A stretch of 64,000 bases of DNA. It comes from a bacterium (GTDB lineage Bacteria; Patescibacteriota; Minisyncoccia; UBA6257; WO2-44-18). The position numbers were made by a program, and so were the translations under genes. Where the stretch lies: NCBI GenBank assembly GCA_030646995.1, contig JAUSKF010000004.1, positions 84,404 to 148,403 of the forward strand, read 5' to 3'. Below the pieces are notes generated by a model, which saw nothing but the letters and a program-made list of their open reading frames with translations, ran no database searches and was not told where the DNA came from. This document shows, piece by piece, positions 2,395 through 42,652 of the stretch (position 1 is its first letter; every line of letters begins with the position of its first letter).

Positions 2395-2552
2395 TACTTC
2401 CTATACTACCAAACCATTCACTCTTTTAAAACTTTTTGGCGCAGGGCAGCTGCCTCTAAGGAACATGCCGGAGACGATTTTGATTGGTTTGTTTGTTAAT
2501 ACAAACGAAAAATCGTCGAGGGAGAAGAAAAACAGCCCGCAGGAGACTGTGG

Positions 2553-2813
2553 GCCCCTATTTCCACATATTCCATCTAATTTGGAAGCTAAAAAATGAGG
2601 CAAGTTCGCGAAGTGAGCCACAGCTTTACAAGCGTAAAGCTAGGCGAACGAACAAAGAAATTGGCCATTTTTTAGCTTCCCGAAGGGCGGGTTAATTTTG
2701 AATAGCTTCTTTGTTACTCGGATTAGACATAGAGTCTATGTCTGCATCCTCGTGGTCGCGAATCTATTCAAAATTAACTCCGCCAAATTGATGCGATATG
2801 TGGAATTAGGGGC
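2553..2813. mobile_element. MITE-like non-autonomous element, copy 1 (~261 bp, 18 bp terminal inverted repeats)
   Basis: Terminal inverted repeats gcccctatttccacatat (2553-2570) / atatgtggaattaggggc (2796-2813). Internal palindrome gacatagagtctatgtc (2726-2742). Homologous to the element at 20237-20504. Confidence 0.5.
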
Positions 2814-2857
2814 CAATTCTGTTTCCGAGGAGGCAGTTGACCGATAAGCCAGAAAGT

Positions 2858-17209: not shown

Positions 17210-17240
17210 AAAAGCGGCCTTTAATAAAGGCCGCTGGGAT

Positions 17241-18266
17241 TTACTTACCTGCTTTCTCTTCTTTTTCTTTTTCGGCTTCCTTCTTCAAAAAATCTTCGTG
17301 AAACTCGTAGCGGTAAACGTACTTCCTTATTATAGAGAAGGATTCGGTGCCGTCTTGCGAGAAGTCCAAGCTCCAATCTTCCTCTGATTTACGAGGATAA
17401 TTGATATTGTACGCAATCTCGCTTTCCTGGCTCAACAACTCGATTCCATGAAGCTTGGAGTAGGCGCGTTCGATTTCGGAGCGTCCAATAGGAGTGCGGT
17501 AAAGATACTTGCCATCCACGATTTCGTTCGAGAAGATGGTTCCCTTTACCTTATCTCCTCGTTCGTCGTACTCCTCTTTATGGCAAATTGCTCCTCGACA
17601 ATCATAGTCGTAGCGGATCTCGAGAGAGTTATCTTCGCGATAAATCCGAAAATCTTCATAGTGAGTAACATCGTCTTTCTTATCCCACTTATAGGAATCC
17701 TGATAGATCGAAAGCAGCTTTCCGTTTCCGTGAGTCGGATTACGCTGACCGGGCTGGCTCCAGTTTGCGTATTTGTAAGTAAGCCTCCGAACTCCCCAAC
17801 GATCAAAGGCCTCCATCGATATCGGCAGACCTTTTTCGTTGAACTGCCACGTCTCTTCGGGGTCACTCCTTAAATCTCCCTCAAGCTCACATCGCCAAAA
17901 AATCACAGTAAAAGCGCCATCGCCACGGTATTTATACTCCCAGAACTTTTCACGAACCCCGTTCAGTAGGTAGGTTTTCTCTAAAATCCTACCCCTCTCA
18001 TCTAGTTTGTAGGAAAACAATTCCATAATGTTCGGACAGCATCCTTCCCTGTTGACATATTCCGTCTCGATAGAAATCAATCGCTGATTTTCATCAAAAG
18101 CAAAAATTTCCTTCTTGTATATTGGAGGCGCGGCCTCTTTGCTAACATGGGAAAAATAAAAATCTCTGTGAATCTTCTTCGCGCCTTTCGGGGCAGTGAC
18201 TATTTCCGGAGGTTCGGCAAAAGCGGAAATGCCAAAAAAAATCACGAACAGGAAGCTGAATTTCAT
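17241..18266 (-). CDS. secreted YD-repeat-like protein, paralogue 1
   Basis: Signal peptide MKFSFLFVIFFGISAFA|EP after trimming to the internal ATG; repeated Y-x-Y-D/N-x-x-G-K/R motifs. Confidence 0.6.
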   Translation of the reverse strand: MKFSFLFVIFFGISAFAEPPEIVTAPKGAKKIHRDFYFSHVSKEAAPPIYKKEIFAFDENQRLISIETEYVNREGCCPNIMELFSYKLDERGRILEKTYLLNGVREKFWEYKYRGDGAFTVIFWRCELEGDLRSDPEETWQFNEKGLPISMEAFDRWGVRRLTYKYANWSQPGQRNPTHGNGKLLSIYQDSYKWDKKDDVTHYEDFRIYREDNSLEIRYDYDCRGAICHKEEYDERGDKVKGTIFSNEIVDGKYLYRTPIGRSEIERAYSKLHGIELLSQESEIAYNINYPRKSEEDWSLDFSQDGTESFSIIRKYVYRYEFHEDFLKKEAEKEKEEKAGK

Positions 18267-18386
18267 GACTTTTCCTTTCAAAGAATCCCTCACATAATTT
18301 ATGTAAGGGACAAGTCTGGGGAGATTATACCAGAAAACTACCCAAAAGAAAAGCCCCACGTTCTCTAGAGACCGTGGGGCTTAAAA

Positions 18387-19214
18387 TTATTTCTTCAAAA
18401 AGTACTGGAGCTTGGCGCGCAAAGTGCCACCCTTAACCCATTGCCCGTTCTTCATCGCATAGGAAGTAGAAACATCTTCCGTCTTCCTTTCGCCCAATAT
18501 GGCCAGATCCGCATAAGTCGTCGAGTAAACACTCTTGCTTACGGGATTCTTACCGACTTCATCATAGCGAACAGACTCTTTCTTGTCGCCACGGTCATTG
18601 TAGCTGGTGGTTTCACGGAGAACATCGCCACTGTAGACTTCTTTCTTCTCCAGCTTGCCGGCATCGGTATATTCATAAACCTCCCAAGAAATCGGCTTAG
18701 TGGCGCCGTCAGGAGTTTCCTCCATCTTCACAAGTTTGCCGTCCTTATTATAGGAAAATTTCTTGACGGTCTTGTATCCTTCCAATTTCAATTCCACCGT
18801 AAGAAGATTTCCTTTGTCGTTCCACTTTTCGACATAAATTGAATCTTCAGAGCGCTCCCCTTCGTCGTCATAAGAATAACCATTCAACTCCCAGCTACCA
18901 TCTTCGTTGTAGGTGTAAACCCAGACGCGCCCCAACTTTCCATCAACATAATCGGTGCGCTCCGCAATCTTTCCATCAGCGCCATACTTATGAGTGTACT
19001 TAAAATCGAGAGCAAATATTCCGCTGGTAACCACGCCGACCAAATCACCTTCCTCGTAAGACCGCACGGCATGAATCAACGACTGCGAATCACCTCCGGA
19101 ACTTTCAAGAAAAATTTCAACTTCAACATTCTTGAGATTCGGATTTTCCTTGGCAAAAGTGGTGTCCTGAGCAAATACGGGAGCGGAAATAAGTAGCAGA
19201 GCAAAAAGCTTCAT
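18387..19214 (-). CDS. secreted YD-repeat-like protein, paralogue 2
   Basis: Signal peptide MKLFALLLISAPVFA|QD; repeats SYNKDGKL, YEYTDAGKL, SYNDRGDK, RYDEVGK. Confidence 0.65.
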   Translation of the reverse strand: MKLFALLLISAPVFAQDTTFAKENPNLKNVEVEIFLESSGGDSQSLIHAVRSYEEGDLVGVVTSGIFALDFKYTHKYGADGKIAERTDYVDGKLGRVWVYTYNEDGSWELNGYSYDDEGERSEDSIYVEKWNDKGNLLTVELKLEGYKTVKKFSYNKDGKLVKMEETPDGATKPISWEVYEYTDAGKLEKKEVYSGDVLRETTSYNDRGDKKESVRYDEVGKNPVSKSVYSTTYADLAILGERKTEDVSTSYAMKNGQWVKGGTLRAKLQYFLKK

Positions 19215-19304
19215 GACTCTCCTCCTCTTCTTTTAATTAACTAAGAATAATTTTATATAAAAAAATCCCGCCTTACAAGGCGGGCATTCAAAATTTACTG
19301 ATGG

Positions 19305-20135
19305 TTACTTCGCGTATTCATACTCAAAAGTGCTGCGACCCGAGGCTCGCGGAATCTTTTCATCTCCGACAAAAACCTTCCAAATTTCACTAATCCGCTT
19401 ATCGCCAGCTTTGTAACCAGGAGTAATTTCTACCCGCTGGGCGACATTACCCAAACCATCGTACTGCGCAAACGAAATCATATCGCCGCGGGTGTTGAAA
19501 ACCGCCTTATCTACAGGGTCGCCATCACCGGAATTTGTCTTGGCTTCCTTGAGATGGCCATTGGCGTAGTAGGAGTAGGTCACAATTTCATCCACTTCCT
19601 TGGTGCCATTCATGGTCGAGGAAAGAGTGGATTTAGTCAGTTTACCCGCAACGTCATATTCGTTTTCACGCCTACGAACCAACCCGGAAACATGAACATT
19701 CTCAGCCGAGAGCCATCGGCCGCCGATGTCGTAAGCATAGTCGACAACCGTTCCGGAAACTTCTTTCCCGTCGGCATCACAACGATAAACCCTCACCTTG
19801 TAACTGCCGTCTTCGACGTAAGTGTAACTAAACTTTCCATATAGCTTACGATCAGCATCAAGCTGTCGCCGCTCTTTCGGATGACCCTTGTCATCGTAGT
19901 CATGCTCATAGTAATTCACGCTATTACTTGGACCCTCTACGGTAATAGAAACCAGAACGCCGTCCTTATAACTTTCGGTACGGGTCAGCATCAGAGTGCC
20001 TTCTGGGTCTGCGCTATCAATGTAGAACTTAGAAATTTTCTTGGAAATCTTTTCATCAACTTTCTTGAAGAAATCCTCGGGATCGCTCGCCAAAGCGAGA
20101 CCGGCGAAAAACAACAGAAAGAGAAAGCTTTTCAT
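19305..20135 (-). CDS. secreted YD-repeat-like protein, paralogue 3
   Basis: Signal peptide MKSFLFLLFFAGLALA|SD; repeats HDYDDKGH, YRCDADGK, NEYDVAGKL. Confidence 0.65.
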   Translation of the reverse strand: MKSFLFLLFFAGLALASDPEDFFKKVDEKISKKISKFYIDSADPEGTLMLTRTESYKDGVLVSITVEGPSNSVNYYEHDYDDKGHPKERRQLDADRKLYGKFSYTYVEDGSYKVRVYRCDADGKEVSGTVVDYAYDIGGRWLSAENVHVSGLVRRRENEYDVAGKLTKSTLSSTMNGTKEVDEIVTYSYYANGHLKEAKTNSGDGDPVDKAVFNTRGDMISFAQYDGLGNVAQRVEITPGYKAGDKRISEIWKVFVGDEKIPRASGRSTFEYEYAK

Positions 20136-20197
20136 TTTCTATCCTTTCAAAGTAACCAAGGATTATTTTATAACAAACCCCGTAAAATGGCTACGCC

Positions 20198-20236
20198 ATC
20201 ACGGGGCAAGAAAAAAGCCCCGTAAAGACGGGGTCA
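20198..20236 (-). terminator. rho-independent terminator of the 20509-21345 gene, displaced by element insertion
   Basis: Read on the minus strand: CCCCGTCTTTACGGGG followed by cttttttcttg. It lies just beyond the left terminal inverted repeat of the MITE-like element. Confidence 0.5.
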
Positions 20237-20504
20237 GCCCCCTATTCCCACATAAGCTCTAGCAGCGTTGTGAGGTATAAATTCTTTATTTCGAGGAAGC
20301 GAATTTTGAGGCATAGACTCTATGCCCAAGATGAGCTGACATAGAAATAAAGAATTTTAACCACAACCCTCTGGGATGCGGGATTTTATTATTTATTACT
20401 TCGTTTCTCGGACTTGGAGTAGACTTCTACATCTGCGTCCTCAAAGCCTCGTACTAAATAAAAAATCCCCGCATCGCTGCGGAGAATATGTGGGAATAGG
20501 GGGC
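20237..20504. mobile_element. MITE-like non-autonomous element, copy 2 (~268 bp, 18 bp terminal inverted repeats)
   Basis: Terminal inverted repeats gccccctattcccacata (20237-20254) / tatgtgggaatagggggc (20487-20504). Internal palindrome ggcatagactctatgcc (20310-20326). Region 20400-20450 aligns with 2715-2760 of copy 1. Confidence 0.5.
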
Positions 20505-20508
20505 TAAG

Positions 20509-21345
20509 CTACTTCTTCTCGTAAAACTCATACTGATACAAGACGTGGCCGCGTTTCAACGCCAGCGCCCTCTTCTCTATTTTACTGTCCATCCATTCAT
20601 CTTCGGTAATCCGTCCGTCCTTGTCGTAGGTGTACTCATGAGCCAGCTTAGCCACCACCTCGCCACCATAGTAATCGTAAACGGCGCGCTCCTCCAGGTC
20701 TCCGGCAAGGTTGTAGCTGGATTCTGCGGACAGATAGCCCATGTGGTTGACGGTAGTCGCGCGACGCAACTTACCGTCCTTATCGTATTCGAAATCAGTA
20801 GTATTCCGAATCTTTCCCTCAATCACTTCCTCGCTCTTCTTTAGTACTCCGTCATCGCTGTAATGATTGACGATCTTGGTTTTAGAGCCGCGGCATTGAG
20901 CGCATTCCCATTCTTTCAGGAGCCCCTTCTTGTCGAAGCGTGAGATGTAAAGCAAATCTCCCGTGGCAAGAATGATTCGCTGCTCAATCTCCAAATTGCC
21001 GTCAACGTCTCTCTTGTATGTCCAACGCTCTAAAGTCTTTCCTTTGTCGTCAATCTCCAATCGTTCCTTAATCTGGCCATCATCTCCATAGATATGTTTA
21101 TAGATAAGTTTTTCGGTCTTGCCGGTGGAATCCGAGAGCTCCTTATTTACCAAATCACCCCTATCATCAAAGGTTTCGGTAACCTTGCGGTCAAAATACT
21201 GCACGGTCGGATTCTTATCATCTTCATCCCAATATTCGGTGATCCGTGCTTTCATTCTCGACGGGGGCTTTTCGAAATCAGCAACTTCAGCAAAAAGACT
21301 TCCTCCGTAAAAACAGGCGAACACGATAACGGACAATTTGTGCAC
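20509..21345 (-). CDS. secreted YD-repeat-like protein, paralogue 4 (GTG start)
   Basis: AGGAGG RBS; signal peptide; repeats YTYDKDGRI, FEYDKDGKL, YKRDVDGNL. Confidence 0.65.
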   Translation of the reverse strand: MHKLSVIVFACFYGGSLFAEVADFEKPPSRMKARITEYWDEDDKNPTVQYFDRKVTETFDDRGDLVNKELSDSTGKTEKLIYKHIYGDDGQIKERLEIDDKGKTLERWTYKRDVDGNLEIEQRIILATGDLLYISRFDKKGLLKEWECAQCRGSKTKIVNHYSDDGVLKKSEEVIEGKIRNTTDFEYDKDGKLRRATTVNHMGYLSAESSYNLAGDLEERAVYDYYGGEVVAKLAHEYTYDKDGRITEDEWMDSKIEKRALALKRGHVLYQYEFYEKK

Positions 21346-41347: not shown

Positions 41348-42652
41348 CTAGTAGCCTTCTAAGGTGTGTGCCTTCCCGTGCCCCCGAATACGAACCAAAG
41401 CCTTAGCTTCAATCTGCCGAATACGCTCACGAGTAACGCCGAATTCCTTGCCCACTTCTTCCAGAGTGTGGGTCACGCCATCATCCAAACCAAAACGCAT
41501 GCTCAAAATCTTCTGCTCGCGGGGAGTCAGGTCAACCAAAATTTCTTTGATTTTGTCACGGAGTAAAGTTTGAGAAGCTACCTGTGAAGGAGTCAGGTTG
41601 CGGTCGTCGGGAATGAACTCCGAAAGGGTGGAATCCTCATCATCATCGCCTACTGGAGATTCCAAAGAAACGACGTCCTGGGAAATTTTCTGAATGTGGC
41701 GGATCTTTTCTACCGGTATATTCATCTCAATAGCAATCTCTTCCGCCAAAGGCTCACGGCCCAGCTCTTGTAGAAGACGGCGTTTGGCCTGCGTGTATTT
41801 AGAAATTGTTTCCACCATATGCACCGGAATACGAATGGTGCGGGATTGGTCGGCTAAAGCGCGGGTAATGGCCTGGCGAATCCACCAAGTGGCATAGGTA
41901 GAAAATTTAAAACCACGGCGATAATCAAATTTATCGACGGCACGGGATAAACCTATGTTACCTTCCTGCACCAAATCCAAAATGCTCAAATTCGGAGAGC
42001 GATTCACATACCGCTTGGCGATAGAAACCACTAAACGCAGGTTGGCCTGAATGAAATGACGGCGGGCTTCTTGGTCCCCTTTTTCAATTTTCTTCGCCAA
42101 CTCCCTTTCTTCCTCGCCTTTCAAGAGTGGGGTCTTACCAATTTCTTTTAAATACATCTGTACAGCGTCAGGCAAATGCTCGCCTACGGTCGCCTCCTCC
42201 AATTCTTTAGTGCTAATCTCTTCTTTCGGAAGTTCAATTAATTGATTGGTTTCTATTACTTTAATCTGGGACTCTTCGAGTTTGTCGTAAATCTCTTCTA
42301 AAAAGCTGATATCGTCTTCAACATGCGGAAAATAATTCAAAACCTCGCCGTCGGTCACGAAACCGCGACTTCGGCCTCTTTCGATAAGCTCACCCAAGGC
42401 CTGCAAATCAATTTCCCGTTTCGCGGCTTTTTTGCCGGTGAGTTTACCCTGTTTTGCATTAGATTTCTTCGAGAACTTCTCCACCTTCTTGGACTTCATA
42501 GTAATCCCCTTAGCCTTTCTAGACGCCTGCCTACCGGTAGGCAGGGCTTTTTTAACGGTTTTTTTGACCGTCTTTTTAGCTATCTTCTTAACTTTTTTAA
42601 GCTTGCTCCGTGAGAGCGAAGCAACTTTACGGGGTTTCAATTTTTTCACCAT
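41348..42652 (-). CDS. rpoD: RNA polymerase sigma factor RpoD (sigma-70) with lysine-rich N-terminal extension
   Basis: Region 2 (IAKRYVNRS...[16 protein letters not shown]), region 4 HTH ([24 protein letters not shown]). Confidence 0.9.

Follow-up and report, generated by a model that had tools for sequence, protein, structure and literature searches.

Small exported YD-repeat proteins encoded by a conserved gene array in an uncultured groundwater Patescibacterium

Four consecutive genes on the minus strand occupy positions 17241–21345 of a 64-kb window (i.e. the whole stretch of DNA analyzed here) from an uncultured groundwater Patescibacterium. The locus raises the question of what kind of protein the genes encode and what such proteins do for the cell. 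The Patescibacteria (candidate phyla radiation, CPR) have an attachment-dependent lifestyle that has to be mediated by envelope and surface proteins, and most of these lack an annotation. An initial annotation described the locus as a tandem array of divergent secreted paralogues that resemble Rhs proteins in their YD-type repeats and have no C-terminal toxin domain. The paralogues are termed A to D here, D being at array position 1. The evidence shows, or supports well, that they constitute a family of small YD-repeat proteins that is specific to the lineage and whose members are Sec-exported, soluble and acidic.

Paralogue D (20509–21345, minus strand) is predicted to encode 278 amino acids (aa) from a GTG start. 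Its signal peptide ends in SLFA/EVAD (the slash marks the cleavage site) and the sequence displays seven YDxxG turns. Paralogue C is at array position 2 (19305–20135, minus strand, 276 aa), with the signal peptide end LALA/SDPE and five YDxxG turns. Paralogue B, the most conserved member of the four, is at position 3 (18387–19214, minus strand, 275 aa) and has the signal peptide end PVFA/QDTT and nine YDxxG-type turns. Paralogue A is at position 4 (17241–18266, minus strand) and has a chain length of 341 aa from an ATG, the signal peptide end SAFA/EPPE and degenerate repeats. It also has an insertion at about residues 175–198 and a charged C-terminal helix at residues 328–340. The open reading frame of A can be extended upstream to a GTG at 18359. 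The ATG at 18266 was chosen because this is where both P0158, a database protein, and the orthologue L007_4 begin. P0158 has 341 aa and is 100% identical to A; paralogue B is 100% identical to a database “hypothetical protein” from the metagenome-assembled genome (MAG) of an uncultured bacterium. The four minus-strand genes are thus found as open reading frames of 275–341 aa at the coordinates first given to them, and the cleavage contexts AFA/EP, VFA/QD, ALA/SD and LFA/EV, together with the example motifs YTYDKDGRI, SYNKDGKL, RYDEVGK and HDYDDKGH, are all present in the translations.

The four proteins are true paralogues, and their similarity is beyond chance. Identity among them is 21–33%, in agreement with the early description of the paralogues as highly diverged from one another. 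BLASTP expect values (E-values) are 3e-17 for B and C, 6e-17 for B and D, 5e-10 for C and D, 8e-8 for A and B, and 3e-7 for A and C. A hidden Markov model (HMM) built from B, the orthologues of B, C and D, with A excluded, recovers A at an E-value of 1.3e-10. No other open reading frame in a six-frame translation of the window matches this HMM.

The repeat motif was counted as a strict aromatic-x-x-x-G and compared with 2000 shuffles. It is present nine times in B, five times in C and seven times in D, against about one in the shuffled sequences (P ≤ 0.001). The spacing in these three proteins is mostly 23–29 residues, i.e. a YDxxG turn occurs approximately every 25 residues. A contains only two such motifs (P = 0.19 versus shuffles) and is therefore a degenerate member. 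A profile self-comparison for internal repeats gave the trivial full-length match only.

The class to which the repeats belong was addressed with profile searches. With the Pfam RHS_repeat model, B, C and D score 12.9–14.7 bits, where the cut-off is 22 (E-values 0.04–0.16; 0.042 for C), and nothing is found in A. Among 37 members of the family searched at E ≤ 0.01, RHS_repeat is the Pfam family matched by most (11 of 37), followed by DUF4595 (4), DUF6156 (3), DUF3836 (1) and MORN_2 (1). In the RHS_repeat search that had been proposed as a check, the signal is thus clear for the family, and each window protein taken alone stays below the threshold. D scores 19.2 bits with the NCBIfam model TIGR01643 YD_repeat_2x (cut-off 15.8) and is the only one of the four above that cut-off. 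It is also the only one that matches Pfam DUF6156 (PF19653), at 30.9 bits with a cut-off of 27. B shows a score of 18.2 bits (E-value = 0.0026) with DUF4595 (PF15283), for which the cut-off is 34.2, and there is nothing in A, C and D.

When the 37-sequence profile (profile A6) is compared with solved structures, it matches the YD shell of teneurin-2 (7.9e-8), the Rhs family protein 7q97 (1.1e-6), Tse5 (1.4e-4) and Tre23-Rhs (1.6e-3). An 11-sequence profile had reached 0.005, and a single-sequence search of solved structures with D brought nothing relevant. An exhaustive search of 1.84 billion representatives with a further profile (A2) gave 3864 matches at E ≤ 0.001. The first about 15–20 of these are full-length proteins of ~275 aa, and they are followed by long proteins that are matched in 2–13 stretches at E-values of 6e-26 and weaker. 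All eight long matches that were scanned (6e-26 to about 4e-15) carry RHS_repeat at 52–127 bits, which is far above threshold. Many other short matches start with lipoprotein-like signals. The assignment to a YD/Rhs-like class thus holds, by the commonest Pfam match, the YD_repeat_2x score of D and the teneurin and Rhs shells found with profiles.

Other repeat classes are not favored. MORN_2/YwqK repeats have a Gly-rich hairpin of similar period and co-match some RHS proteins, however A–D do not match MORN_2 (PF07661) even at E ≤ 10, and the single MORN_2 match among the 37 family members is the one given above. MORN repeats are therefore ruled out for A–D. There are no propeller families among the Pfam matches.

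An AlphaFold2 model of B, made with 10 homologues, has a predicted local distance difference test score (pLDDT) of 88.9 and a predicted template modeling score (pTM) of 0.81. It shows an unbroken antiparallel meander of 18 strands, and the YDxxG motifs are at hairpin turns, i.e. at residues 77, 102, 131, 155, 182, 205 and 217. The repeat periodicity, which the initial annotation had expected to see in a predicted structure, is thus reproduced, and the YDxxG turns coincide with hairpin tips. The model of A (pLDDT 71.2) has the same 18-strand order, to which are added the insertion at 175–198, which is disordered, and the charged helix at the C-terminal end. The fold can be taken as confidently predicted for B and moderately so for A.

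A Foldseek search of PDB with the B model gives RhsA 7q97 (1.9e-7) and 4ghb (7e-7, template modeling (TM) scores 0.48/0.51), and next the Rhs cores of Salmonella, Advenella, Acinetobacter and Photorhabdus, followed by teneurins. The Tc BC component is matched as well, and the single-layer sheets of OspA more weakly. The A model yields the same set of matches, with Rhs cores at 4e-7 and 4ghb at 1.5e-6. Foldseek probability for the top Rhs cores is 1.0 (E-values 2e-7 to 4e-7, A and B). In these models, the match to the Rhs shells is one of local sheet architecture rather than of the whole cage. It is well supported, as far as predicted structures go, that the whole mature chain forms one antiparallel sheet of ~18 strands with 7–9 YD (Rhs-type) hairpin repeats. 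In effect, and with good support, each protein thus corresponds to a short section, standing alone, of the sheet from which Rhs/Tc/teneurin cages are built, and is most like 4ghb.

Similarity to the large shells (e.g. 7q97, 8qjc, 4igl and 6fb3) consists of the same YDxxG hairpin, recurring with a period of ~25 residues, and of a shared local sheet architecture. It is significant at the profile level and also at the fold level (E-value ~1e-7). However, A–D are about a quarter of the shell length, the solved cores having 1020–1350 residues, and a closed cocoon is therefore impossible. The “beta-spiral shell” that had been suggested for these proteins does not hold at such a size; the nearest whole fold is that of 4ghb, a small DUF4595 protein. 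The Rhs core motif PxxxxDPxGL is also missing. DPxGL is not present in A–D, and there is one internal match among the 20 family proteins examined (A–D and 16 relatives), in L005_6. The chain ends with the last beta-strand in B and with a short charged helix in A, so that there is no room for a toxin. A toxin domain is not among the Pfam matches of the four window proteins. The absence of a C-terminal toxin domain, as first claimed, is thereby borne out. No PAAR, VgrG, type VI secretion system (T6SS), TcA, toxin or immunity gene is found near the array in any lineage examined. Rhs/Tc toxins are characterized by a closed shell, by a core motif with autoprotease and toxin, and by partner systems. 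A–D have none of the three and therefore are not to be filed with them. The possibility of a classical Rhs toxin is ruled out by size, lack of the core motif and gene context. It is well supported that A–D are without an enzymatic, toxin or autoprotease part and without an anchor to membrane or wall.

The nearest known kind of protein is the short stand-alone YD protein, represented by the families DUF4595, DUF6156 and DUF3836. The DUF4595 structure 4ghb (Bacteroides uniformis BACUNI_01323-like, labeled “porin-like”) is the best whole-fold match for B. Its chains of 255–257 residues are similar in size to A–D, and like these it is exported and consists of nothing but a stand-alone all-beta sheet built from YD-type hairpins. 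DUF4595 also co-matches true Rhs proteins. On the other hand, identity to 4ghb is just 11–12%, and B is below the DUF4595 cut-off. A DUF4595 example is a lipoprotein (PMC11854122), whereas A–D have signals of the signal peptidase I type without Cys. Unlike DUF4595, A–D are part of a conserved array of 4–6 genes in Patescibacteria. “Sugar-binding” is the annotation given to BACUNI_01323-like proteins (about 312 aa) that are encoded on plasmids of Clostridium perfringens.

DUF6156 and DUF3836 (PF12930, PDB 4r03) are likewise short, uncharacterized, YD-looking families. DUF6156, for which D is above the cut-off, also matches true RHS proteins, and the DUF3836 structure 4r03 shows a weak sequence and fold match to the array family. 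However, the two models have 96 and 127 positions and cover only part of the array proteins, and they are matched by few family members (3 and 1 of 37, respectively). A–D are a new subfamily within the short stand-alone YD proteins and not a new kind of system. They are set apart from the other short YD proteins by export of the signal peptidase I type, the conserved array, the home in Patescibacteria and a sequence below Pfam thresholds. A literature search on YD/Rhs repeats in Patescibacteria, CPR or Parcubacteria gave nothing on the family, and a broad search on short YD-repeat lipoproteins was unproductive.

The relation to DUF4595 brings up a role as immunity or decoy proteins that neutralize incoming toxins of the Rhs/YD type or other types. 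A DUF4595 lipoprotein in a T6SS locus of Bacteroides fragilis has been suggested to be an immunity protein (PMC11854122), and B has the weak DUF4595 match described. That role is itself a proposal for DUF4595, however. There is no toxin or secretion-system gene near the array, a PADLOC search gave no match, and the array is in stable housekeeping synteny and not in a variable island. We consider an immunity or decoy role very improbable.

Export is indicated at the N-terminal end. A hydrophobic segment followed by an AxA-like site is present in 20 of the 20 family proteins, and a lipobox Cys or an LPXTG motif in none of them. Anchoring as a lipoprotein or by sortase is thus ruled out. Read directly from the sequence, the signal peptides appear to be of type I, as the initial annotation had them. 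The signal region is unstructured in the AlphaFold models (residues 1–19 of B and 1–21 of A). The mature proteins have about 255–320 aa, an isoelectric point of 5.1–5.7, a grand average of hydropathy of -0.8 to -1.0 and ~35% charged residues. The two strand faces of B have mean Kyte-Doolittle values of +0.36 (the more hydrophobic face) and -1.32. It is well supported that A–D are soluble and acidic and do not have a membrane-like face.

Two terminal features were seen in the family in addition. The last residue is Lys in all 20 proteins but in only 4 of the 37 other open reading frames of the window that have at least 150 aa. It usually follows an aromatic-x-aromatic strand, often in the form aromatic-x-aromatic-...-K(K), and the Lys sites of A, B, C and D are at window positions 17244, 18390, 19308 and 20512, respectively, on the minus strand. 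A nearly invariant F-x-K motif is found a few residues past the cleavage site of the signal peptide across the family.

Composition has a bearing on two other explanations. Membrane beta-barrels, i.e. porins or outer-membrane proteins, might be considered in view of the all-beta fold, the signal peptide and the match to a protein labeled “porin-like”. The array also follows rseP, a place taken by bamA in diderm bacteria, as in the E. coli gene order. However, the proteins are strongly hydrophilic with the high proportion of charged residues given above, they show no lipid-facing strand face, and they end in Lys instead of an aromatic residue; moreover the structural and profile matches are to soluble YD sheets. 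An outer-membrane porin is effectively refuted by hydrophilicity and strand-face hydropathy, and membrane barrels of any kind are hardly credible.

Alternatively, the curved sheet could enclose a cavity and serve as a carrier or scavenger that captures lipids or other host-derived nutrients, which Patescibacteria are generally unable to make themselves. In favor of this are the export and solubility of the proteins, the “porin-like” description of the structure closest to them in whole fold (4ghb), and a weak match of the A model to LolA3 of P. gingivalis (E-value = 1.4e-4). Yet the TM score to LolA3 is just 0.16–0.20, neither strand face is hydrophobic, and no transporter genes adjoin the array. 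A carrier function is thus unlikely, though it has some plausibility.

The family is restricted to a narrow (groundwater) clade of Patescibacteria. The nearest relatives of B are 44–63% identical and come from Patescibacteria/Parcubacteria MAGs. A scan with alignment A3 of one genome per GTDB species detected a B orthologue in only two species. Five other lineages were compared with the window: L002 (Hainich groundwater), L005, L007 (identical to L008, Parcubacteria Gr01-1014_19), L094 and L095. The labels of one of these sequences are inconsistent. L011, which is the same as L009, L007 and L008, is one 11-kb sequence with two deposits, labeled “uncultured Candidatus Saccharibacteria bacterium” in one and “Parcubacteria group bacterium Gr01-1014_19” in the other.

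The array is directly downstream of frr and rseP in all five other lineages, and proS follows wherever the contig continues beyond the array (L002, L005, L007/L008 and L095). The relatives carry 4–6 members in a fixed order between rseP and proS. The wider neighborhood has a murA-type gene, two mreB genes, mreC and PBP2, and mreBCD is listed among the neighbors of every lineage. In Bacillus subtilis, rseP and proS are directly adjacent, and the array therefore has the appearance of having been inserted into an old string of housekeeping genes.

Positional orthology is strict in a bit-score matrix, where D, C and B correspond to positions 1, 2 and 3, and A to position 4 of L007. D is orthologous to L002_1, L005_1 and L007_1 at 35–36% identity. 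C is 30–32% identical to the position-2 genes and B 49–52% to its position-3 orthologues, and A is 42% identical to L007_4. The duplications are therefore older than the split of the lineages. The array thus consists of old duplications whose copies are non-redundant and have each been retained. Membership varies slightly between lineages. In L002, L005, L007 and L095, position 4 is separated from proS by a gene of about 300 aa at position 5. The window is without this gene; its gap between A and proS (17210–17240) is only 31 bp and contains a hairpin. L094 and L095 are without position 2, as judged from gene sizes and order alone, and L005 has a sixth gene in the array.

The arrangement allows a different explanation, in which the 4–6 paralogues assemble extracellularly into one hetero-oligomeric YD cage or sheath on the surface of the Patescibacterium, so that separately secreted pieces jointly do the job of a single Rhs core of 1000–1400 aa. 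In six lineages the genes keep a fixed order and each position has one orthologue. Added together, the proteins have about 1170–1700 aa, with ~18 strands in each, a total length comparable to that of an Rhs core (1020–1350 residues). The conserved N-terminal F-x-K and the C-terminal aromatic-x-aromatic...K edges could be seams between subunits. However, the varying membership would not be expected of an obligate stoichiometric complex, several of the genes have their own terminator-like hairpins, and B by itself is similar to 4ghb, a small protein that is self-contained (TM about 0.5). Such a joint cage appears quite unlikely.

The array genes change more rapidly than their neighbors. Between the window and L002, L005 and L007, protein identity is 69–72% for RRF, 75% for RseP, 92% for ProRS and 92–94% for MreB, but 30–52% for the array proteins. 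Nonsynonymous substitution rates (dN) and their ratio to synonymous rates (dN/dS) were computed among L002, L005 and L007. The dN values are 0.16–0.26 for the array genes, 0.02–0.08 for frr, rseP, proS and mreB, and 0.09–0.15 for mreC and a ligase-like gene. Nominal dN/dS is 0.06–0.16 for the array and 0.02–0.05 for housekeeping genes; dS is saturated (0.9–3.7 or undefined), so these ratios are indicative only. Contigs that have an identical family protein are 99.9–100% identical in DNA and therefore provide no unsaturated comparison. The results show that the array genes evolve fast, three- to ten-fold faster than the neighboring housekeeping genes, and under overall purifying selection. There is no evidence for gene-wide diversifying selection in the dN/dS values of the three lineages, with dS saturated as noted; selection at specific sites is possible. 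The idea of a “diversifying” family is thus not supported, as the paralogues represent ancient positional orthologue groups with a nominal dN/dS of ~0.1. A dN/dS calculation from an alignment of the four paralogues, which had been proposed, is meaningless at 21–33% identity.

With respect to function, we favor, as the rather more probable reading, exported and soluble YD-repeat proteins that serve for binding or as scaffolds in the cell envelope. The cell would be a wall-bearing and probably episymbiotic Patescibacterium. Once signal peptidase I has cleaved them, the proteins would remain in or on the envelope, where they would bind partners or serve as scaffolds without catalyzing any reaction. 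Binding may take place on the concave side of the curved sheet, which is rich in Tyr and Trp. The partner may be a glycan, a peptide or a further protein of the envelope, with a specificity that may differ from paralogue to paralogue. The invariant C-terminal Lys and a basic tail may tether the acidic proteins to anionic polymers of the envelope. The envelope-rich neighborhood (the murA-type gene, two mreB, mreC, PBP2 and rseP) is in favor of this reading.

Several points weigh against it. Each of the four window proteins falls below the Pfam gathering score for RHS_repeat. The TM scores to the Rhs shells are low (0.13–0.30), because the target shells are 4–7 times larger, and the 4ghb match is borderline for B (TM ~0.5) and poor for A (0.27–0.33). 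The gene neighborhood may be mere conserved housekeeping synteny. Retention in the envelope, ligand binding and paralogue-specific specificity are steps that we purely infer. The related DUF4595 family offers little guidance, as papers mention it only as a co-match of Rhs proteins and, for the Bacteroides fragilis T6SS locus, as a speculative “candidate immunity lipoprotein” (PMC11854122).

A fold and a repeat class can now be given to “hypothetical proteins” that are kept in 4–6 copies amid cell-envelope genes. This is of use for annotation and provides a candidate list for studies of surface proteins. The poorly understood short YD-repeat proteins that stand alone (DUF4595, DUF6156 and DUF3836) also gain an example that is of monoderm type and not a lipoprotein. 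The understanding of Rhs/YD proteins is unchanged unless the idea of a hetero-oligomer is true.

The spacer between D and C (373 bp) contains an element similar to a miniature inverted-repeat transposable element (MITE), as the initial annotation had remarked for one intergenic spacer. It is 270 bp in length (20236–20505, no strand assigned), starts 3 bp past the stop codon of D and has 24-nt terminal inverted repeats at 20236–20259 and 20482–20505. The predicted secondary structure displays a closing stem and two long hairpins (z = -12.4 and -13.7 on the two strands), and compensatory changes are present in 8 of the 73 consensus pairs. L007 (8717–8984, 77% identical) and L094 (9668–9938, 82% identical) have copies at the corresponding site directly behind the position-1 gene, but in L002, L005 and L095 the element is absent from this site.

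A second and more diverged copy in the window (2552–2814) has 30-nt terminal inverted repeats that are 83% complementary. Profile searches found further copies between positions 4 and 5 in L007 (11996–12265) and in L095 (8533–8788), and upstream of frr in L005 (6115–6385). These diverged full-length copies, i.e. that at 2552–2814 and those of L005, L007 and L095, are all intergenic. The element is thus a dispersed, variably present repeat family. DNA identity between the window and L007 is 76.7% for the element, 69.8% for rseP and 69.4% for frr, and the array genes that flank the element do not align at the DNA level. There is no match to the element in Rfam, and no target-site duplication is evident by eye. 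A metagenome scan with the 17-mer terminus gave 82 single matches, none with both termini and none matching the rest of the element, and the 82 matches are read as chance level. The element could be a site-preferring MITE, with repeated site-specific insertion, or a functional structured RNA or DNA element.

Terminator-like hairpins are found in and around the array, and their number in the region is no higher than in shuffled sequences. One of these, with a T-run, is inside the element on the gene strand (20485–20466) and the hairpin is conserved. The other three, all on the minus strand, come from a consensus scan only. They are just outside the element (20218–20233), between C and B (19267–19284), and between A and proS (17213–17235), the last with a 10-bp stem. 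The hairpin at 20218–20233 may be the original terminator of D. Upstream of C (20172–20233) there are short CCCCGT...ACGGGG hairpins with a 15-nt direct repeat, AAnAAnCCCCGTAAA, whose copies are 40 nt apart. These may be hairpins of the repetitive extragenic palindromic (REP) type or terminators. A 46-nt stretch at 42592–42637 is 80% identical to this hairpin region upstream of C.

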